NCBI GenBank assembly: GCA_030390025.1
Contig: CM059431.1
Span: forward strand, 133,798,001-133,862,000
DNA length: 64,000 nucleotides
Source: Squalus acanthias
Lineage: Eukaryota
Reading direction: 5' to 3'
Shown: in pieces, positions 1-11,207 of the stretch
Layout: each line of letters opens with the position of its first letter
How positions within the stretch are numbered: the first letter of the stretch is position 1
Program-made: the position numbers and the translations under genes
The notes under the pieces: model-generated
What the model saw: the letters and a program-made list of their open reading frames with translations, nothing else
Told to the model about the DNA's origin: nothing
The model's database searches: none

Positions 1-593
1 CGCGCTACAGGCTGCGCGCACGCAGTGCACTTAGTGCTTTGAACGCGCAGGTAAGCATGGAAGATTTTGCACATAAAGAAAGGAGGCGTAAGACCCTCTT
101 TTAACAAGGTAAGTAGTTAATTAAGTATTATTTTAATTTTTTTTCAACAGGTTTATCTTTTTTAGAGACTTTAAAGAAAGGTAAGTTTATTTTTATAACT
201 TTTAAAAAGATTTTAAATTTTTTCAAAAATTTAATTTTTTGTTTAAAGTGGTTAATTTATTTAACTATACTTATTTTATTAATGTGATGGTTTTGTAAAA
301 AAATTTAATTGAGGTTTAGCTGTTCTTTTGGGGGGGGTATAGATTCATAGCTTTGACAGCCCTTGCTGTCAAAACTATGAATGAAAGATGGTGTGCTGCC
401 ATTGGCTCTAACTGAATCACGTGATCCCAGAGCTCGCACGAATTAACTGTGTCTGTGGGATACGCACACACTGCGCGGTTGCAACCTTGAAACTAAAGTT
501 CGTGTGAGCTCGGAAGGAAAAGGCAGGCGCGCAGTGAGATATCGTGGGGAAGCCTTACCCCCGCAGGAACGCTCCGTCTTTAATTTCTGGGCC
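1..593. mobile_element. Right part of a probable non-autonomous Harbinger-type DNA element
   Basis: GC-rich subterminal segment ends in AATTTCTGGGCC (582-593), resembling the GG(G)nnGAAATT TIRs of the Harbinger copies later in the window. AT-rich interior, no ORF; the left end lies outside the window. Confidence 0.4.
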
Positions 594-840
594 ATTGTCT
601 ATCTTGGGCAAATCGTAGGCAGCATTGCCTTTAAACTTACACTGCGTATATGCCTTTCAGGTGCAAAAGGCCGATGCCTCTCGCACCACCTGTATATGCA
701 TGTTTTATTACAAAAGGAAAAATAATTAAACCAAACTATTTTGAAAATACAAAAGTTCCAAACTTAGTCACAAATACTCATAACTAACAACAATTACAAA
801 AATACACACGGTAAAAATGGAGGGGCGTCATCCTGGCCGT

Positions 841-3192
841 TTACGTGACACTTTCCTCGTTCACGCGAATGTAACGTTCTCTCCACTCACCTGTGTTCTC
901 CTGCCTCGTGAGGCGTTTGCCTCTTTTGCAGTGCACGAACAGCAGGTACACTACAATTACAACTTGACACACTACCAAAATGTGGGAGGCTATCCTGATC
1001 CATGACGGGACTTCGATATTAGTGAACAGATCCCACCACGGTGGGGTTACTATGTCCAATATCTTTGCCCCTATCTCTACAGTTTTCTGTTTCAGGGTGT
1101 AAAAATGATTCTGTGATACCATGACGGCTTTTAAAATCTTGGTGAGGTGTTCAGGGAGAGGGGGAATGATGTATCCGAAATGCGCGATGAATCGCTGCAA
1201 GTCTGTGAAATTCTCTTTTACAGTGAGGTGAACAGTGGATGGTTCAGGGATCGGGTCAATTCGCTGCTGTGCCACTTGAACTTCAGCCCTGGGTTTAAAA
1301 CAGAAACTGCTGTCACTCACCGGACACCGGCTGTGCTGTCCATGCTGGTAGTGTTGCGCTGCAGTGGTAACGCAATACGTTCCACCCCCTATGTATGCCA
1401 CCTGTGGGGGCACATGATCTTGTGTCATTGCTTCCATGGTGCAATTCATGGGCTTCGCGCCAGCCGTTCTGAACCCGCATTGTGGTGTTAAAAAGGCATT
1501 CAAGTGCTGGGGACACAGTATGATGTGTGCTCCCCGGCCACGACAACCCGAGAGGTCGGTACCTGTCATCGTTTGCTCCCAGCGGATGACGTAAGGTGGG
1601 ACCGCTGCGTAGCGAATGTGGGCTCCCCCTTGAATGACACCAATGTTCTCCACCCGGTACACCGGGGCGGGCTTTGCTGTGTCGCCCAACACCGGCATCC
1701 GTACTACTATCCCCATGATAGTGTGATTTGACTGTCCGCAGTCCACTGGGACTGGGTATGCCTCTGAGGCTAGCCTGAGCTGGCACGGGCTTAATGCGTT
1801 CTGAAAAGGGTGGAGCGCCTGCAGGTGTTTGTTGCTTATCCAGGACGGGACCAAACCTTGTTTTAAATCCTCCAAATTACTGCGGCCTTCGCCCAGTAAC
1901 CACGCCCCGTATAGTACGCACACCTCGTTCTGCGCAGCTTGATCGGATGCATTACGATCTTCCCTGATCAGGGCATTTACCGTTCTCGCATGCTTCTCCA
2001 GCTCTGCTATAATCTCTTTTAAGTGTAGTGTCATGGCCTGGTCCTCATGTAACTCAGACCCTACTACCTTGTTCTCGTTTGTGAGGATGCTTTTTAACTG
2101 TGTTTTTAAACCGTTGATCTGGGTCTGCAGCTCCACATTGTCTAGAGCGTTGACCACAGATGTTCCCGTATTAAAAGCAGTGAACACATCGTTCACAACA
2201 CCCCTTCTTTGTCTCCCCACCTGACCCAAAACTTCGTGTGGTGTGGTGTATAAGCTTGTTTTGTCAACCTCTGCAAAATCAAACTCATAAAATTGCCTGA
2301 ACATGTTTGTTAACAGGACCTGGTACAATTGTTCCGTTTCTTTGGGGCACCACTCTGGTAAATGCACCTCGGTGAGATTTAGAATCACCGAGGCCACCGC
2401 GTAATGTACCCCTTGATATAGTATCTGATCCGTTGGCACCAGTACCAGACCATTCCCGGGCCCCTTAGTGGTTTTAGGGCACCCTTCCTCCTGAGCCAAA
2501 GCCACCGGAATCGTGGGCGGAGACTTGCGTGGGCACGTGATGAGTTCAGTGGCATTTACCGGGATCGGGGAGAATGGAGCTCCACACCCCCTGGTGCTGA
2601 CGTCCCACCTCATCCCTTTCCCGGCATCCTGCCACTGTTGCAGGAAAAATATGGATATACCCTTGGGGCAAACGTACTTCGATCCCCACATACAAACATA
2701 TATTCCCTCATCCGGTTCCCACCATTTGTCCCAACAGACTTTCAATTGTCCGTTAGTCCCTGTAATTGTCCGATGGGTATTGTTACCCAATCGCTCCCAC
2801 TCGACCGAGGAATTTCTCATAGTCTTGCTTAACTTCCGTAACCACCACCATCGGCTCAATGGGACCTTCCCATTGCACGTCAAACAAATCCTTTTGCCGA
2901 CGGTGACGCTGATTCTGGGTGCAACGATCCTCACCCTGGGACACAGTAAAGAAGTCTCTTTGTACGCAAACCCGGATGCGCTGGAGTATTCCGTCGAATT
3001 CGTTCCCAGCCATCCCGGCCACCTTCCCTTGTGGAAATAAGTGGCGGTTTCCTCAGCCTCTCGCTCCCCGGTCCCATCCGTCGCGATGGGGGCCGTGTCC
3101 CCGGAGCAATCGAACACAACGACATCCTTGGTGAGGCCACAATAGGCCAATCCATATCCGATCGTTGCGAGCACTATCAGAATCCTTTCCAT
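841..3192 (-). CDS. env: Envelope glycoprotein, class I fusion protein (Mononegavirales F-like) with N-terminal Ig-like domain, 783 aa from ATG 3192
   Basis: Signal peptide MERILIVLATIGYGLAYCG; N-glycosylation sequons; furin site RQRR (2203-2214) followed by a fusion peptide and heptad repeat; Cys-rich ~450-aa F1-like subunit; C-terminal TM helix (ILVVCQVVIVVYLLFV) and short basic tail. A splice acceptor (..TTTTATCTGAATCACAG, AG at 3206-3205) lies just upstream of the ATG. Confidence 0.88.
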   Translation of the reverse strand: MERILIVLATIGYGLAYCGLTKDVVVFDCSGDTAPIATDGTGEREAEETATYFHKGRWPGWLGTNSTEYSSASGFAYKETSLLCPRVRIVAPRISVTVGKRICLTCNGKVPLSRWWWLRKLSKTMRNSSVEWERLGNNTHRTITGTNGQLKVCWDKWWEPDEGIYVCMWGSKYVCPKGISIFFLQQWQDAGKGMRWDVSTRGCGAPFSPIPVNATELITCPRKSPPTIPVALAQEEGCPKTTKGPGNGLVLVPTDQILYQGVHYAVASVILNLTEVHLPEWCPKETEQLYQVLLTNMFRQFYEFDFAEVDKTSLYTTPHEVLGQVGRQRRGVVNDVFTAFNTGTSVVNALDNVELQTQINGLKTQLKSILTNENKVVGSELHEDQAMTLHLKEIIAELEKHARTVNALIREDRNASDQAAQNEVCVLYGAWLLGEGRSNLEDLKQGLVPSWISNKHLQALHPFQNALSPCQLRLASEAYPVPVDCGQSNHTIMGIVVRMPVLGDTAKPAPVYRVENIGVIQGGAHIRYAAVPPYVIRWEQTMTGTDLSGCRGRGAHIILCPQHLNAFLTPQCGFRTAGAKPMNCTMEAMTQDHVPPQVAYIGGGTYCVTTAAQHYQHGQHSRCPVSDSSFCFKPRAEVQVAQQRIDPIPEPSTVHLTVKENFTDLQRFIAHFGYIIPPLPEHLTKILKAVMVSQNHFYTLKQKTVEIGAKILDIVTPPWWDLFTNIEVPSWIRIASHILVVCQVVIVVYLLFVHCKRGKRLTRQENTGEWRERYIRVNEESVT

Positions 3193-3466
3193 ATCTCCTG
3201 GTTCCTGTGATTCAGATAAAATGATGTAGCCAGCCTCCCAAGAGTCTCTGGCTTTTGTGAAGGGTGAGCGGGTCCCTTGACTTCGTCTCACGTACAAAGA
3301 CATGTATACTGGATAGACCTTAACTATTCCTATCACTAACTCCCATCATTTTACCATTTACTTATAAAATTAAACTACAATCTTAACCGGATATTAAAAC
3401 ACTATAAACTTAAACTTATCCTCCTAAAATAACTGTACAGCGCCGCCCGTTCCCAGGGCAGCCTAC

Positions 3467-6400
3467 CTAAAGTCTGGACAAGCTGCCACGAGCTTTTCCC
3501 CGTTGCGGGGGGGCACTGACCCCTGTCTTTGATCCGCCGCAGCCTGTCGCTGCTGAGCTGGGACTGGTATCTCCCTGGGCTGCCTTCAACTTACGCCTGG
3601 GGGTGTACGAGGGATTTGACCACAACTTCCTGGGCTGGGGTGTCCGACTCGACCTGCAGAGGGCCACCTTGGGCAAGATCTCCAGGACCGACGGACTGGG
3701 GACCGGGACTTCCGCCGCCACGGCCTGTGGTCCCACCACAGCCGCCGGCTCTGTCTCCCCTGGCTCCGCCCCCCTGGGCTCGGGATCTGCGGTTTCCGAC
3801 TCCACCTTACTTGTTTCTCCTGTAAGTGGAACTCCACTCGCAATCCCTACCTCCCCTATGCTTGGGTCAAGGGCGGAACCTCCGTCCTCCGACCCCACCA
3901 CCTCTCCGACTGGGTCACTACCTTGGTTGAGCTCTCCGAGCTCTTCCTCATCTGAATCCCACGAAAAAGAAAAGATCCTACACTTTTCCAGAATGTCCTC
4001 TCCCCTCACGCAGGCTGCTTTACCGGCCTGTGTGCCCTGCGGTTCTACCCAGGGCTGAGAGTCCCCACTCGCAGGTTTGGCCCCTGTGATTGGCCCCTGT
4101 GCACCCGGTTTATACAGCTTGCACTGGTTAATGTGGAACCATTTTGTGCGCCGGGGTACCTTTATGGCATACACCATGGGACTCGCCTTATCTACAATAC
4201 TGTAGGGTCCCATGTATAGCGGCTCCAAACTCCCTACTCTGGCATAGTTCCTAACCATGACCTGATCTCCGACTCCCCACTCCTGCTTCTTGCGGGGTTC
4301 CAGCAACAGGCGATTGCCCTGGTGCTGTCTTCCCATGTTCCCAGCCGCCTGCTCGTAAACCTGCTTCAGGCGTTCCAAGAGGGTCTGGACAAACTTGTCC
4401 CGTTTCACCTCTTGGAGCTGACCCTCAGTGAGCACCGGGGCTAGTACATGGGTGGGGGTTCACATGATCCTCCCAGTCATCACCTCGTACGGGGAATACC
4501 CCGTACTCTTCGACTGGCTGGCCCGGATTCCCATGAGGACTAGAGGCAGAACCTCCGCCCATTTTTGGGGCGAGTTCATAGTCTCTTTCCTCAGTTTTTC
4601 CTTGAGGGTCCGGTTCATGCGTTCAACAATCCCGGATGACTGGGGATTGTGCGCTATGTGCCACTTCCCTTCAATGCCCAAAAGCATGAGGGTGTTCTGC
4701 ATCACCTGGCCGGTGAAATGACTCCCTTGGTCTGACTCCACCAAACGGGGGAGTCCCCACCGCGAGAACACTTCCCGGACCAAGATCTTGGCAGTACCCA
4801 GCGCCGTAGCTGTTCTACAGGGAAAGGCTTCTACCCACTTGGAAAACACATCCACCAGGACGAGGCAGTATTTGTAGCCTCCCTGGGTGGTGGGCAGGGG
4901 CCCTATGTAATCGATTTGTATTGACTGCCATGGTCCCTCCACCCTCCTGATGTGCCCCATGTGCACTTTCCTTTTCTGGGGGTCTGGGTTGTTTGCAGCG
5001 CACACAAGACAGCTTGCACAGAACTCGCGGACCTGATCCCTGAGTCCCGGCCACCATCCCGCCTGCTCTACCCGTTGCCAGGTAACCTCGGGCCCGGGGT
5101 GTCCTGCCCCCGGCCCCTCATGAGCCAGCTGGAGGAATTCCCTCCTGTGCTGCTGCGGCACAACCCACTGTTGCTCGCGGAACAGCATGCCTTCTTTAAC
5201 GGAGAGGGTTGCCGTACTGTACGGGCCCTCTACCTGCTTGCCCTCAGTAATCGTTCTGAGAACTGCCTTTAGGGCGGGATCCTGGCTCTGGACGGTCTTA
5301 AGGTCTAGGGGCAGTGCTACCCTGGTGTTCCCGGGATTCCCTTCCCTGCCTTGGATCGCTGCCATGGGTCCGGGTCCATAGGGGTCCCAGAAAATGCCGT
5401 TACGGGCACCCTCTCTGGCTAGCGCATCCGCCTGCTGGTTGCCTTCCCCGCGGGGTTCTGTGGAGGAGTGAGCCTTCACCTTGTGGATGAAAATCTCCCC
5501 TTCCTCCCCCACTGCCGCTAGGATCTTTTCCAGCAAGGGCTTCACCGTTAAAGGTCGCCCGTCCGCGGAGGTGTATCCACGGCGGGACCAAATGGCCAGG
5601 TATTCCGTACACGAATTGCACGTAAACATACTGTCCGAACAAATCGTGTATGGGGTTGGGAAGATCTCTGGGTGGGTCACTACGTACGCCACCGCAGACA
5701 GCTCAGCCTGCTGCGCGCTCATCGTGCTGGGGAGTTTAATTGCCAAGGCAAGGTTTGCCGCAGGGTCATAAACTCCACACCCTGTGAGTCGTTCGCCAGC
5801 AGACACTGTGCTGGAACCATCAACATAAATCTCGCGACCTGTGGGATGTATCCCGGCCCGCAAACCTATGTTGACCTCCCACACCCCTTCCACCGAACAC
5901 TGGTGGGCTGTTCCGGGGTATACCAGGTTGGCCGCGAGCTTGGGCTCGCAAAGACCTTTAACTCTAAGATCCATCTGGGAAAGGAGAAGGGTCCAGCGCG
6001 CAATGCGAGCGCTGCTTACGGTCCCATCCTTAATCCTCCCATCCAGAAGCATCTTGGTTGGCGTGTGATGGGTGAGGAGAGTGATGGGAGAGAGCCCTGT
6101 GAAGATCGCTGATCTTTTCACAGCCCAATGCGTGGCTAAAAGATGCCTTTCGCAGTTGGAAAAACTCCTTTCCACATCCGTTAACACCCTGGATGAACAA
6201 ACAACCGGCCTCAGCCTGCCGTGACGCTCTTGGAACAGCACGGCGCTCAAGCTGTCTCCGATGGCAGCTACCTCCAGGAAAAACTCCTCCCCCCCATCTA
6301 TGGCCCCTAAAGCTGGCGCGGTCTGCAGATCCTTTTTTAACTTCTCGAATGCTGCCTGACAACCCTCGTCCCAAGACCACTCCACTCCCTTATGGAGGAG

Positions 6401-7773
6401 TCAGAGCAGCGGAGCTGCTGTGGCCGCATAGTCCTCGATGAAGTCTCTGCAGTAACCGGTCAGTCCCAGAAAGGACCTCACACCCGTTATGGTGTTGGGA
6501 ATCGGTAACTCCTGCACCGACTCCCTCCTAGCCTTATCTATGGTTCTTTCCCCAGCGCGAATGGTCAGACCCAGGAATTTTACTTCCAGCTGACCGATAC
6601 GTGCTTTCTTAGGGTTAACTTTAAAACCCTTTCTCGCTAGCAGCTCCAATAACTCGGCTAACAGTGGTCCATGCTCCTCCCTTGAGTCTGTGAACAGGAG
6701 CAAATCATCCACGTACTGCACTATCTGATTGGGCTGACTAAACTCCTTTAAACTTCCTGCCATACACTGATGGAAAATACTGGGGCTGTTGTGGAAACCC
6801 TGTGGCAAACAGTTCCATGTGTACTGTTGTCCTTTGAAAGTAAAGGCAAACTTGTACTGGTCCTCTCGCCGCAGCGGGATGGACCAAAAACCGTTCGAGA
6901 TATCCAGCACCGTGAACGTGGTCGCGGACGCTGGGATACTCCCTATTAGGTCAGCAACTGCTGCTACTGTGGGCGCGCAGGCGAGGATGTTACTGTTAAG
7001 GACTCTGTAGTCCACCGTGGCCCTCCACGAATTATCCGGCTTCCTTACCGGCCATAATGGGGAGTTCACGTGTGTGGCTATCGGTCTCAACACGCCCTGC
7101 TGCACCAATGAGGACATTGCTGTCTCCATGTCGGGTTCTGCTTCTTTGGGGAAGTTATACTGCTTTTGGAGCCGGGTCATGGGGTCCCCGTCTACTCAAA
7201 CCCGGTAACCCTTCCACAATCGTGCTTGTGGGTTGCAAACGCGTGCATATTATCTGACACGTACGTTTGCATGTCCGTTGGGACATCCGCGACCATAAGC
7301 CCGAGGTCGTAACCTCCGGATGGCTTCATGGTACACAGGGCCCCTTTTCCCTCCTTCCCTGGGATTACAACTACCTTGCCTTTTCCACCCCTGGCTCCCC
7401 AGAGACAGTGATTCCTGAGGTCCACGAGGATCCCGTGTTCCGCTAGGAGATCCGATCCGAGGATACCTTTGCCACCCCCCTCTTGCCATTTCATCAGGAT
7501 ACACTTCCATGTGGTGTGGAGTGCTCCTAAATGAATGGAGAGCGGAATGGAGAATGCGCCAGCCTGCTCTTTTCCTGTGAACCCCGCTAATGTGAATGGG
7601 ACCTTGGTAGACAGTGGTGAGTCAAAGGGGCTATCTGTATGAATCACGGTGCATGAAGCTCCCGTGTCCAACAAGTAACTACCCTTCTGCTTCTCTACCT
7701 CCATCTCTACCAGGGGTCTTTTCCACGCATCATAGCTGAGCGGACACAGGTAGACGGGCTGCGCGGGCTTTAG
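3467..7773 (-). pseudogene. pol: pol polyprotein (protease, RT, RNase H-derived tether, RNase H, integrase with GPY/F motif and low-complexity tail), 3 lesions
   Basis: PR LLDTGAS...ILGSD; RT LDISNGFW, LPQG, YVDD (6704-6715); RH IYVDGSS/QQAEL/CSDS/GNQQAD; IN HHCC, QIDYIG, ESDQG, GIVERMN, GPY. One frameshift near 7195 and two in-frame TGA stops (6401-6403, 4460-4462); the downstream ORFs stay in frame across both stops. Confidence 0.92.
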
Positions 7774-9525
7774 TCATTGGGTACCGGTGGACGGGGTTGT
7801 GGCATCTGTGGGGCCGGTAACGACTGCCACTCTCCCGTGCGAAATCATAAGAGACCGCATGGCTCCTAACATTGATTCTATCGCATTGGGATGGATAGGC
7901 ACACCAGCTCCTTTCTCAGAGACAGGCGCTTGGGTTCGGACTGCGGGAGCTTTTTCCCTGGAGTCCTTCCAGGGATTCCTACAGTTTTTACGCCAGTGAC
8001 CTGTCTTCCCGCACCCGTAACAAACACTACTGGTTTGTGGGGCGCGATTTCCCTCCTGATGCCACTCTTTCTGAGCCGGAGCTGCGGGCTTTGCTTCATG
8101 CACCTTTCCCTTAAGGGGACGCGCTCCCGTGCTCCTAGTGTTCCGATACCCTATGGTGAGGTGACTCAGGACAGATTCCTCCGTTGTCTCGGGGTTAGTG
8201 GGATCAAACCACGCTCTGGCCTGCTCCCTGACGGCTGGCAAGCTGTTGGCTACTATGCACCTGAGCCAATGAGCTTTCCCGGCACCGTCCAGATAGATAC
8301 GCTGTGGCGCACCTGGGCAGCTACGCTGGTATACTGGCCACAGTCTGTCGGCGAAAACCCGCGGGGGTTCTCCCTCCATCTGTACGGTCTGACCCAATCT
8401 GACGAACGGACCTTCGTCATCCACCCCTAACACTTCTAGGACCTCGTCCCGTAAATCCCCATACCTTTTAGCTCCCTTCTTGCTCTCGTCGGAGAGACAC
8501 TGAAGGATCGAGCTATCTAAAGAGAACAGCAACATTTTGGTCTTTTCCTCGTCGTCGCAGCCATTAATCGCTGCGGTCTGTTCTATCTCTCTAAAATGTA
8601 CGGAAGGGTCTTCTGACTCGGACAGCTTCCGGACATGGCTGATCATTGCCCTCAGCTGGTGTGAGCTGTGGGGCACTACAAGTAGGTTCAGGATATCCCC
8701 GTCTGCCCCATTTGCCCCATTCGGGCCTCTCTTCTGCCCTCGGAGCGGACACATCGGTCCCGGTCTCGACACTACCTCCGGGGATTGTCCTACCTCGGGA
8801 ACCTTCTTCTCTATTTCCACCACTTCCTCCCTTACCCAGGTTGCCGAATAGCTGGGTGGCGCGGAGGGCGTAGTGGTTGATACCACATCTGCTTTTTCTG
8901 GTAGGGATTTTGGGAATTCCCTACCCACCTGTGGCTGGCTCGCTGACGGGCTGATGAGACACACCAAGCCGTTTGCCTTATTCAGGGCCTCTCTTAGGTT
9001 CTCTATCTCCCTCTGACAAACACTGTGGTCGGCTCCCTCATGCCTATCCTCAAGGGCCATCTTGTATGCCGCCCTAACTCCCCTCAAGCTTTCTTCCTGG
9101 GCTTTTATCTGGTTAGCTAGGCGGATACACCGTTCTCTAATCCTTCCCTCACTTAATTTTGCTTCCGTGACCTGACATTCTAGGTAATCAATCCTAGCCT
9201 CGTGGTGGTTGGCTACTACTTGGCGGTCCTGTTGCAACGCATTCAATGATGCAATCAGTCTCTGTCCTCCCGTAACCTTTTCCTCCATCTCAGTTTCCAA
9301 TTCCCTGATCTGAGCTGCCTGTGCTGCAATGACCTGGTCCGAAAGTTGGACTTGCTTCTTGTAGCACATCAGCCAGACCGCTTTCTCTACCGACTTCTTA
9401 TGATCTTTGCTACCTGTCCATTTGATGGCGGCGTCTAGCGGACGCCTATCCATCAGTAGGTCACATATCCACTGTTTGGTTAAGTTAACTTTCCCAAACA
9501 CATAGTCGGCTACCTTCTCATCCAT
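7774..9525 (-). CDS. gag: Gag: N-terminal coiled coil, late domain, capsid-like region, single CCHC zinc knuckle
   Basis: Open frame with CYGCGKTGHWRKNC (7981-8022), PSAPPSY (8848-8868) and a heptad-rich N-terminal third. The start is most likely ATG 9525; an alternative ATG at 9597 overlaps the PBS. Confidence 0.85.
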   Translation of the reverse strand: MDEKVADYVFGKVNLTKQWICDLLMDRRPLDAAIKWTGSKDHKKSVEKAVWLMCYKKQVQLSDQVIAAQAAQIRELETEMEEKVTGGQRLIASLNALQQDRQVVANHHEARIDYLECQVTEAKLSEGRIRERCIRLANQIKAQEESLRGVRAAYKMALEDRHEGADHSVCQREIENLREALNKANGLVCLISPSASQPQVGREFPKSLPEKADVVSTTTPSAPPSYSATWVREEVVEIEKKVPEVGQSPEVVSRPGPMCPLRGQKRGPNGANGADGDILNLLVVPHSSHQLRAMISHVRKLSESEDPSVHFREIEQTAAINGCDDEEKTKMLLFSLDSSILQCLSDESKKGAKRYGDLRDEVLEVLGVDDEGPFVRLGQTVQMEGEPPRVFADRLWPVYQRSCPGAPQRIYLDGAGKAHWLRCIVANSLPAVREQARAWFDPTNPETTEESVLSHLTIGYRNTRSTGARPLKGKVHEAKPAAPAQKEWHQEGNRAPQTSSVCYGCGKTGHWRKNCRNPWKDSREKAPAVRTQAPVSEKGAGVPIHPNAIESMLGAMRSLMISHGRVAVVTGPTDATTPSTGTQ

Positions 9526-9578
9526 CACATTTCGCCTATTCAAACCTGGGTCTAAGACATTACTCTCTTGCTGCCAGG

Positions 9579-9596
9579 GTCCAGCCGCGGTCGCCA
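9579..9596 (-). promoter_or_regulatory. Primer-binding site, tRNA-Arg(TCG)-type
   Basis: Minus strand reads TGGCGACCGCGGCTGGAC, 5 nt after the LTR end. It is complementary to the vertebrate tRNA-Arg-TCG 3' end as I recall it (GTCCTGCCGCGGTCGCCA), with one mismatch. Confidence 0.8.
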
Positions 9597-9601
9597 TTTT
9601 C

Positions 9602-11207
9602 TGTAAGGGGGCGTGTCTCAGACGGTGCTGGTGCGAGGTTAGGCCTTCGTTGCCTATACTATTGCTTGCTCTGGTCTCCGGCCAGCCTTTTTGCAATAAG
9701 CACCTGTGAGTGGTTCGACCCACTCGCCCTTATGGTTCTGACACCTGGACTTAGATGCAAGGAGCAGTAATGCAGAGAAAACTCAATAGACCCGGTTGAA
9801 TAGCACGAAACGAATATCTTTATTGCATGGCGTCTAAAATCATGAAATACATGTCATAGGCGCAAATCAAAGAGAGTACAAGTATACACACATTCATAAA
9901 ACTTGGTCTATGGAAATGGAGAACACACGGCACATCGTAAAAAGGGGAACACATTATACCTTAACCTTATAAAAACCACCCTCCCTTAACAATACCTACA
10001 CTACGTCTGGATTTGTAGGATCGGAAATCATGCTCACCACTCGGTTTACTTCGGAGATTTTAAAATGAGGCACTCAGTTCGTTTCGCTGCAGCGCCTGAC
10101 TGTCACGTGTTTGGAAGGGTTTCTGCACCCCACTTGTTTACTTTCGCTGCTGCGAAAGGCAAGCCAGACTCCCTGTTGTCATGAAGCAGTCGATGGACTC
10201 AAACCGTCTTAGAATTCAAAGAAGGATCTTCCTGTGTTGCGGTACATGTAGAAGTCGGTAGAACTCAAAGGAAAGTTCTGTCGTTATATTTTTCCCCGCG
10301 CAGTCGGGTTTTACTGACCGTGGCGGCACGTGGAATTTCTTCTCGTCTTTCTTCTCGTCACTCGGGCCTTTGGGTCCAGACACCGTTTACCGACACTCGG
10401 GATGGTGTACCCTGTTACTTGCCCTTGTCGAGGCGGCTCGTTCCGATTGAGCTCCACCCAACACTCGAATAACCGACCAGTACGGCGAAGAGTCAACAGA
10501 GTCAACAGAGTCCAGAGAGAAAATCAAGAGGCTGACAGTCCAGGAGAGCGATACAAGAGACCGATGGACATTTGTCCTCTATAGTTATACTGTTGTGTCC
10601 GCTTTATCTCCCGCTCAAATCTAAATGTTTATCCTTTGTGTGATTTTGGCGCTTAAAACTCCCAGCATGGGGCGATTCTCTTCTTAACGGGTTTCGGTGG
10701 CACCTGAAACTGGCCAACTATCCGTTAATGTCTTCCCCATTGTTGAGCCAGCCAGGATGTGTATGAATCGTCTCCTCGACTGGTTTTGGGGCCCCCCGAA
10801 TACTGGCTTAATCACCCGCCAATGTCTCTCTCATTGTTGAGCCGGGGGGGTATTTGTGTATTGATGTGTCTGGATGGGCCTTCGATTGCCCAGTTCAATG
10901 ATCCTTACTGTGCATAGGAAAACGATTCCAGCACTTATATCATTGCTAGTGTTCAAAATGCAAACGGGTTGCATCCTGTCTTTATCAATGTGTACCGAGT
11001 ATGATCCAATCTCATACTGAATGTATATTCAACGCCATCTTGTCTGCCCACTGTGTCTCTGGAAGCTTCTGCCACGATGCGCGGCAGCCATTTTACAGGC
11101 TTCTGTGTCCTTTATATTATCAGGACAGCATTTCGTTTAATAAAACTGATCAATTGAATCTGCTTCTCTCATGTTATTTTGAATCGCGATAATTGCGAAA
11201 CTCTACA
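9602..11207 (-). repeat. 5' long terminal repeat (~1606 bp)
   Basis: Bounded by TGTA...TACA and immediately precedes the PBS. The minus strand has a TATA-like TATAACTATAG (~10589-10579), a splice donor GTG|GTGAGC (10037) and AATAAA (9824-9819). No second copy exists in the window to confirm the boundaries. Confidence 0.72.

Follow-up and report, generated by a model that had tools for sequence, protein, structure and literature searches.

The closest described systems to the locus reported here are of three kinds. Lokiretroviruses are endogenous retroviruses (ERVs) of lampreys, bony fishes, amphibians and reptiles whose envelope protein (Env) is similar to the Pfam family of paramyxovirus and pneumovirus F proteins (PF00523, E 2.2e-7) and which possess a tether as well as an RNase H, as the main text of Wang and Han (2020, PMC7947760) describes. 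The core of foamy-virus Env is described as F domains I–III with an added receptor-binding domain, and the F-type scaffold is said in the same account to accept such modules either N-terminally, as in the coronavirus spike, or internally, as in foamy virus (Fernandez et al., 2024, PMC11468914). Gamma-type Envs, in turn, carry an N-terminal, independently folding domain of immunoglobulin (Ig) V type that serves in receptor binding, called RBD-C in murine and feline leukemia viruses (MLV/FeLV), according to the text of a recent preprint (10.1101/2024.03.17.585361). Here we describe an env gene in a 64,000-nucleotide stretch of the dogfish Squalus acanthias genome (contig CM059431.1; the whole stretch is called the window, and nucleotide positions refer to it). 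We read it as the intact env of a young lokiretrovirus-like ERV, with a core of F/foamy type and an N-terminal, Ig-centred head that would bind a receptor and would be an old module in an exchangeable slot; we put the probability of this combined reading at roughly 0.6.

The initial annotation, made from the letters alone, had pointed to an Ig V/I-set signature in the N-terminal part of this gene, and the signature is present as it was noted. It consists of Cys106 at the end of ...RICLTC (ISVTVGKRICLTC, residues 94–106, window 2875–2913), the Trp run WWW (residues 115–117, window 2842–2850) 9–11 residues further on, and DEGIYVC (residues 161–167, window 2692–2712); together these occupy window 2692–2913, inside the interval 2650–2935 that had been marked. 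Cys106 and Cys167 are 61 residues apart, compared to about 55–75 for V/I-set domains, and Trp117 lies within the usual distance of about 10–15 residues after the first Cys for the strand-C Trp. The D-x-G-x-Y-x-C motif expected before or in strand F is represented by DEGIYVC, for which the clade of close relatives shows D/E/Q variants. Such a combination is rare by chance: C-x(8-16)-W-x(30-65)-D-x-G-x-Y-x-C was found in 12 of 20,000 composition-preserving shuffles of Env, and D-x-G-x-Y-x-C alone in 38 of 20,000.

The pattern is kept in related copies. Among 19 copies from the same genome, which are too similar for motif conservation to be informative, Cys106 is present in 18 and both Cys167 and DxGxYxC in all 19; a stop interrupts one copy at residue 114. 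More telling is an alignment of 24 rows of the Ig region (A4), for which diverged relatives were mined from the same genome and from protein collections. As read from this alignment, 12 of 13 rows of the close clade have the B-strand Cys and 11 of 12 the F-strand Cys, and the Trp is kept. In a second clade the corresponding counts are 7/7 and 8/10, with the Trp in five rows (L065, L064, L043, L048 and L055) and missing in three (L047, L054 and L039).

Structure prediction points to the fold that had been proposed from this signature. An AlphaFold2 (AF2) model of residues 80–195, built on alignment A4, has seven strands (mean per-residue confidence, pLDDT, 68; predicted template-modelling score, pTM, 0.63), with ten-residue block means of 65–88 over model residues 11–90. 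Cys106 falls in strand B (102–107), Trp117 in strand C (115–120) and Cys167 in strand F (164–169), and AF2, Foldseek and VIA-align together describe a two-sheet Greek-key beta-sandwich. Foldseek returned at least 500 matches in the Protein Data Bank (PDB) at E<=1e-3, headed by an antibody VL domain, CRTAM and ZIG-8 Ig1; the top matches have E-values from 1.2e-5 upward and query-normalised TM-scores of 0.46–0.63. With VIA-align, the model superimposes on a Fab light-chain V domain at Z 11.0 (root-mean-square deviation 2.5 Å over 94 residues), and 988 of 995 chains from Foldseek's top 1000 reach Z>=8.

Searches at the sequence level lead to the same superfamily. The best PDB matches of the A4 profile are CD8-alpha (E 0.011), DIP-alpha, CRTAM (E 0.033), OBCAM and neurotrimin, and phmmer with the whole Env against PDB gave antibody light chains alone, at E ~1. 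Pfam Ig_3 matches the whole Env at E 0.22 and the isolated domain at E 0.013, with 16.4 bits against a cut-off of 30, a gathering score that is a detection threshold and not a structural criterion; the same model matches 9 of 24 family members, with a best E of 0.0027. The UniRef name of the shark relative P0013 is ‘Ig-like domain-containing protein’. In a protein-language-model search, all look-alikes of residues 85–190 belong to ig, V-set or I-set clusters at scores of 0.88–0.91, which we take as a lead only; shuffled proteins can score 0.9 in 4–10 of 100 cases. Taken together, an Ig V/I-type fold for residues 88–187, predicted and not solved, is well supported.

The Ig module is N-terminal to a conserved fusion core, as had been annotated. 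About 227 residues (19–245) separate the predicted signal peptide from this core, which in alignments of all full-length relatives begins at about residues 210–246. The parts of the gene are as follows.

841–3192, minus strand: env open reading frame (ORF), 783 amino acids (aa) plus stop, intact; ATG at 3192, within the open frame 841–3336
3139–3192, minus strand: predicted signal peptide, residues 1–18, MERILIVLATIGYGLAYC, judged from the sequence by eye
2932–3138, minus strand: region before the Ig domain, residues 19–87; GRWPGWLGxNST.YSS kept in the close clade; ratio of nonsynonymous to synonymous divergence (dN/dS) 0.11; AF2 pLDDT <50
2632–2931, minus strand: predicted Ig V/I-type domain, residues 88–187; B-strand Cys106, C-strand Trp117, F-strand DEGIYVC(167); sequons N127 and N137
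2458–2631, minus strand: linker, residues 188–245; Cys203, Cys238 and sequon N213; ends at the conserved CP....GPGNGLV; dN/dS 0.14
2203–2457, minus strand: F2-like segment, residues 246–330; ends at furin-type RQRR (residues 327–330, window 2203–2214)
844–2202, minus strand: fusion subunit resembling F1 or the retroviral transmembrane subunit (TM), residues 331–783; fusion-peptide-like start GVVNDVF, heptad region, Cys-rich domains, short tail
928–999, minus strand: probable membrane anchor, about residues 732–755; hydrophobic stretch, judged from the sequence

The core opens with GNGLVLVPTDQILY (residues 246–259), the conserved GNGLVLV starting at residue 246. Further on, GRQRRG occupies residues 326–331, and the furin-type site RQRR(330), at which cleavage is predicted, directly precedes GVVNDVFTAFNTGTSVV and a heptad region, with a hydrophobic stretch towards the C-terminus, the layout of an F-type protein. 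Within the N-terminal 270 residues the window copy departs from the other copies at three positions: Cys18 and Asp28, where 19 of 19 other copies have Arg/Gln and Gly, and Cys220, which is Arg in 17 of the 19.

When 18 family members are combined in a profile (A5), it matches foamy-virus Env gp130 significantly (8rm1_D, E 1.1e-4; 8rm0_A, E 7.3e-4), in the TM part, over the Cys-rich region that follows the heptad repeats. From this match and the layout, the core from about residue 246 is probably a class I fusion protein of the F/foamy-virus-Env type, with F-like architecture. The F-type label given to this Env at the outset would rest on its link to foamy virus and not on a direct PF00523 match, and an F-type Env in a retroelement had in any case been published already (PMC7947760).

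The element resembles lokiretroviruses as the main text of PMC7947760 presents them: a vertebrate ERV with gag, pol and env, a tether and an RNase H, and an Env with signal peptide, R-X-K/R-R site, fusion peptide, coiled coil and membrane anchor; the relation to F rather than to orthoretroviral Envs, described there, would be shared as well. Relatives of the window Env also occur in coelacanth and frogs, groups listed there for lokiretroviruses. Unlike the lokiretrovirus Env, for which that text describes no N-terminal Ig module, the window Env has one, and it has no match to PF00523; the words cartilaginous, Chondrichthyes, shark, receptor and immunoglobulin are absent from the main text of PMC7947760. 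The assignment of the element as lokiretrovirus-like is suggested by this gene content and host range.

With foamy-virus Env gp130 (8rm0, 8rm1; PMC11468914) the window Env would share the combination of an F-type core and a receptor-binding domain of its own, which makes a separate attachment protein unneeded. The foamy-virus domain is described as a previously unseen fold between N-SU and C-SU, whereas the window module is Ig-like and placed at the extreme N-terminus ahead of the F2-like segment, a placement described in the same source for coronavirus spikes. The two also differ in gag, which in the window element encodes a CCHC knuckle. To our knowledge, foamy-virus Gag has none. The gamma-type Envs are alike in their N-terminal IgV-type domain, but the IgV-like domains treated in the text of the preprint are on gamma-type or alpha-like Envs and RBD-C is called ‘modified’ there (10.1101/2024.03.17.585361), whereas the window Env has an F/foamy-like core and an Ig domain with a canonical Cys-Trp-Cys triad. 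No two adjacent Cys occur anywhere in the window Env, and it therefore lacks a CX6CC motif. This motif marks the gamma-type TM.

Like the F proteins of PF00523, the window Env would be a class I fusion protein that is cut at a furin-type site, leaving a short N-terminal subunit and a much longer C-terminal one. Direct sequence similarity to F is limited to a 12.8-bit match in a single relative. We know of no paramyxovirus or pneumovirus F with an N-terminal V-type Ig domain. Domain II of F is itself described as Ig-like, and these F proteins mostly pair with a separate attachment protein (PMC11468914). The surprise expressed in the initial annotation came from comparing the gene with paramyxoviruses alone, and the attachment and fusion functions it saw joined in one chain are no novelty. 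One-chain proteins of this kind are the norm for retroviral Envs. IgV-like N-terminal heads are likewise known, on gamma-type Envs (10.1101/2024.03.17.585361).

F-type retroelement Envs, F-like scaffolds with an added receptor-binding domain and IgV-like gamma-type heads are thus each known separately; what appears to be new here is that a V/I-type Ig domain of canonical form is joined to an F/foamy-type retroviral Env. We found no description of such a domain at the N-terminus of such an Env in the main texts, titles and openings of abstracts that were covered, and ‘immunoglobulin’ has no occurrences in PMC7947760, PMC9040795, PMC12440569, PMC13709493 or the eLife/bioRxiv errantivirus paper. 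The locus joins three so far separate strands: lokiretrovirus F-type Envs, F scaffolds with add-on modules, and IgV-like heads of gamma-type Envs.

Relatives of the window env are found in sharks (Chiloscyllium, Mustelus, Heterodontus, Rhincodon and Pristiophorus), the skate Rhinoraja (76–77% identity), the frogs Pelodytes and Mantella, and coelacanth. A protein search of 1.84 billion representatives gave 49 significant matches, eight of which align to the N-terminal module, six of these reaching the Ig part; five full-length proteins (P0012, P0013, P0019, P0036 and P0043) align solely from about residue 210–237 onward. A scan of metagenome contigs with the close-clade alignment gave 171 pattern matches, none of them confirmed. 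Proteins of the P0013-like clade, which is abundant in the Squalus genome too, have the B-strand G-x-(K/R)-x-x-x-x-C in common with the close clade, and an unusual F-strand run is aligned between the two (LNWPQFWNRHSGNIRC vs. VCWDKWWEPDEGIYVC). In hhalign the two clades match at E 1.4e-7 when the adjoining F2-like part is taken in, and at E 5.1e-4, in a single comparison, for the Ig parts alone. Judging from these alignments, the Ig modules of the two clades are likely homologous, though unproven.

Other lineages carry something else at the same place. One lineage in the same genome (L057 and L059) has, in the N-terminal slot, a Cys-rich module some 105 aa long, and P0012, P0022 and P0031 have a Cys-rich module of another type (P0012 and P0022 are shark proteins). 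In the coelacanth gene model P0049 the signal peptide leads directly into the core, apparently with no module. The presence of the Ig domain in related env genes, raised as a question at the outset, is therefore mixed: it occurs in the close and P0013-like clades, and a Cys-rich module or apparently none in others. Given such differing modules at one position, the N-terminus appears to behave as a receptor-binding region that is exchangeable between lineages. In one further env lineage from the same genome (L055), whose ORF is cut upstream, the core is separated from the Ig F-strand motif (LCWPRWWKKHTGQYSC) by about 110 additional residues.

Exchange of this kind invites the alternative that best survives the data, namely that the Ig-like modules of the close, P0013-like and frog clades and of P0036 are independent acquisitions into one N-terminal slot. 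The two shark and skate clades have weak Ig-only similarity (hhalign probability 31%), neither the frog proteins nor P0036 have significant profile similarity to the module, the flanking regions differ, and non-Ig modules fill the slot elsewhere. P0036 shows a V-set-like pattern that lacks the Cys pair (Pfam V-set, sub-threshold, E 0.045), and the N-terminus of the frog protein P0019 is Ig-like by language-model features alone (0.87–0.88). Against this, L/V-x-W-x-x-x-W/S-x-x-x-x-G-x-x-x-C and G-x-(K/R)-x-x-x-x-C align across the two clades, and the E-value of 5.1e-4 was reached in their Ig-only comparison. We regard wholly independent acquisition as unlikely, if the least so of the alternatives.

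The Ig module seems to be an old and selected part of this Env lineage, as suggested by its occurrence in divergent env lineages of sharks and skates. Measured against a 91%-identical sub-lineage (L061), the window copy shows a synonymous divergence (dS) of ~0.6, and dN/dS is 0.07 for the Ig part and 0.07 for the F2-like part, compared to 0.11 for residues 19–87 and 0.14 for the linker. Such low values indicate that the Ig module was under strong purifying selection during virus replication. For more distant pairs dN/dS is unusable because synonymous sites are saturated, and since the Ig domain is common to lineages at that distance, any capture must be old.

The initial annotation had further proposed that the virus captured the domain from a host, with a nearest host protein of the Ig superfamily (IgSF) to be sought. 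None is among the 49 significant matches, all of which, by reading, are env relatives or gene models with env pieces. An ancient capture of a host IgSF domain is possible, and it is not demonstrable from these data. A recent capture is another matter: it would make the domain an exon newly taken from a host IgSF gene, acting as an immune decoy or shield that mimics a host receptor or ligand and not as an entry site. The canonical-looking V-type domain with its Cys-Trp-Cys triad in the model and the two sequons inside it (N127 and N137) would suit such an origin, as would the precedent of a host-derived SIRP-like IgV on a retroviral Env, the one case among gamma-type IgV-like domains for which the preprint text reports host capture as shown (10.1101/2024.03.17.585361). 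A recent event is unlikely because no host IgSF protein appears among the matches, and the domain's presence across synonymously saturated lineages also speaks against it. As to decoy function, the domain is fixed in the N-terminal subunit that cleavage of the entry protein would produce and is not itself a secreted product, so that receptor binding is favored over a decoy. On balance we consider recent capture with a decoy role improbable, and somewhat more so than independent acquisition.

Under the reading we prefer, that of an Ig-centred receptor-binding head on an F/foamy-type core, the Env precursor would be cut at RQRR(330). The N-terminal subunit (residues 19–330) would then be held on the trimer via its F2-like segment, with the Ig domain pointing outward as a receptor-binding head; once this head engages a molecule on the host surface, the fusion subunit would finally be released. 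Placing the Ig head on a retained subunit is by analogy with retroviral SU, the foamy-virus receptor-binding domain and the N-terminal domains of coronavirus spikes. Both receptor binding by the Env Ig domain and its host origin are thus things we infer. V-type Ig domains like those of CRTAM and the nectins have other IgSF proteins of the cell surface as binding partners; the receptor of a viral V domain could therefore be the protein to which its host ancestor bound. Such use of a partner has been proposed in the preprint text for the SIRP-like captured domain (10.1101/2024.03.17.585361).

A wider proposal, which we offer tentatively and at somewhat less than even odds, is that lokiretrovirus-like Envs form a modular entry system, in which an F/foamy scaffold bears a slot that, in the course of vertebrate evolution, was variously filled by a V-type Ig domain, filled by a Cys-rich module, or left empty. 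The Ig head of cartilaginous fishes would then derive from a V domain of a host IgSF protein, captured long ago, whose natural cell-surface partner thereby became the viral receptor. It would be a second independent invention, on a fusion machine of unrelated type, of the IgV head that gamma-type retroviruses have. If true, this would be a convergent case of Ig-domain use in viral entry. Should the Ig head bind a host surface protein, it would offer a concrete handle on receptor use and would show module evolution in an ancient retrovirus lineage that has no known exogenous member.

Several results weigh against our reading. The Ig model is of middling confidence, with model residues 1–11 and 103–116 at pLDDT <50, and AF2 failed for residues 19–250 with a 10-row alignment (pLDDT 36.9). 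All sequence-level Ig signals are sub-threshold, including the Ig_3 score of 16.4 bits (against 30) and the best PDB profile E-value of 0.011, and the profile of alignment A1 had no match in PDB at E<=10. When only the Ig parts are compared, the two clades show weak homology, with the hhalign probability of 31% given above, and the frog proteins P0019 and P0043, together with P0036, show no significant profile similarity to the Ig module (E 0.03–0.8). The start of the module-free P0049 is a gene-model prediction. For the core, PF00523 has no match to the window Env at E<=1 and matched one of 18 relatives (L043, E 0.036, 12.8 bits), and the lokiretrovirus assignment is based on gene content and host range rather than on a tree of reverse transcriptases (RTs). 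Moderate model confidence, matches that all fall below threshold and shuffled proteins that reach 0.9 in the language-model search (4–10 in 100) could mean that the segment is no true Ig domain but a lineage-specific beta-rich stretch with a coincidental Cys/Trp pattern that AlphaFold forced into the most common sandwich fold, which we judge very improbable given how rare the pattern is in shuffles (12/20,000), its retention across ~50%-identical relatives, the convergence of independent methods on one superfamily, and the position of the three key residues in model strands B, C and F.

The env gene is part of a retrovirus-like provirus on the minus strand at window 1–11207, in which env is preceded, on that strand, by gag, protease, RT, RT_RNaseH plus RNase_H, and integrase, as ORFs and Pfam matches show. 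The degenerate RNase H tether followed by a second RNase H, in a gag-pol-env element, is the arrangement of lokiretroviruses. Besides env, the following parts were recognized.

7774–9723, minus strand: gag ORF, 649 aa; coiled-coil N-terminal part and one CCHC knuckle (E 7.4e-4, Pfam)
3467–7704, minus strand: pro-pol, with protease, RT, RNase H-like tether plus RNase H, and integrase (Pfam, frame check)
7192–7704, minus strand: protease (Pfam), in a frame that differs from the RT frame
6401–7180, minus strand: RT (RVT_1, E 5.5e-37)
4460–6385, minus strand: RNase H-like tether (RT_RNaseH_2, RT_RNaseH), then RNase_H (E 1.2e-20), then integrase (Pfam)
3467–4435, minus strand: C-terminal SH3-like part of integrase (Pfam)
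10841–11207, minus strand: part of the 5' long terminal repeat (LTR), 98.6% identical over 367 nt to the DNA 291–657 nt before the window's first base (3' LTR)

A direct-repeat search within window 1–11200 found no LTR pair, because the 3' LTR precedes the window's first base. In the window copy the frame from RT to integrase is broken by two internal stops (6401–6403 and 4460–4462), and the env frame is open. A search for env in the same genome (3.7 Gb) gave 12,924 first-look candidates, of which 57 were scored; all 57 are 94–100% identical and 35 are stop-free, in a sample that consists of the best-scoring candidates and is thus biased towards intact copies. The element belongs to a young, highly multiplied family with gag, pol, env and dual RNase H, and given the stop-free copies and the LTR identity, the viruses may have been infectious recently. 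A domesticated, syncytin-like host gene was rejected as an explanation of env, since the gene sits in an LTR-flanked provirus and has thousands of candidate copies. Contigs from four sequencing runs, whose run type was guessed, cover most of env at 90–99% identity; transcription is not inferable from contigs.

Residues ~130–260 of gag form a long coiled-coil-looking stretch ahead of the capsid and zinc-knuckle part, with faint Pfam coiled-coil matches. Lokiretroviruses are described as sometimes carrying an SMC-like gene (PMC7947760). Env fragments occur in gene models of sharks and skates, and two such models bear host-gene names: P0003 and P0004 of Pristiophorus japonicus (‘zinc finger protein ZFP2-like’ and ‘protein Niban 1-like’) include env pieces fused to host-gene sequence, and represent either chimeric annotations or provirus fragments that have become exons.

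Between env and the 3' LTR lie ~733 nt (window 1–593 plus 140 nt before the window) that are missing in four of five compared copies and present in L006. At the outer edge of the 5' LTR a satellite array of ~29.5 kb begins (window 11216–40777), built of ~1142 copies of a 25–27 nt unit (TCTCTCTCTCCCCAGTTTGTGTTTC) at 83–84% matches. With a GC skew of -0.5 and an AT skew of -0.84, this array yields spurious ORFs of >1000 aa.

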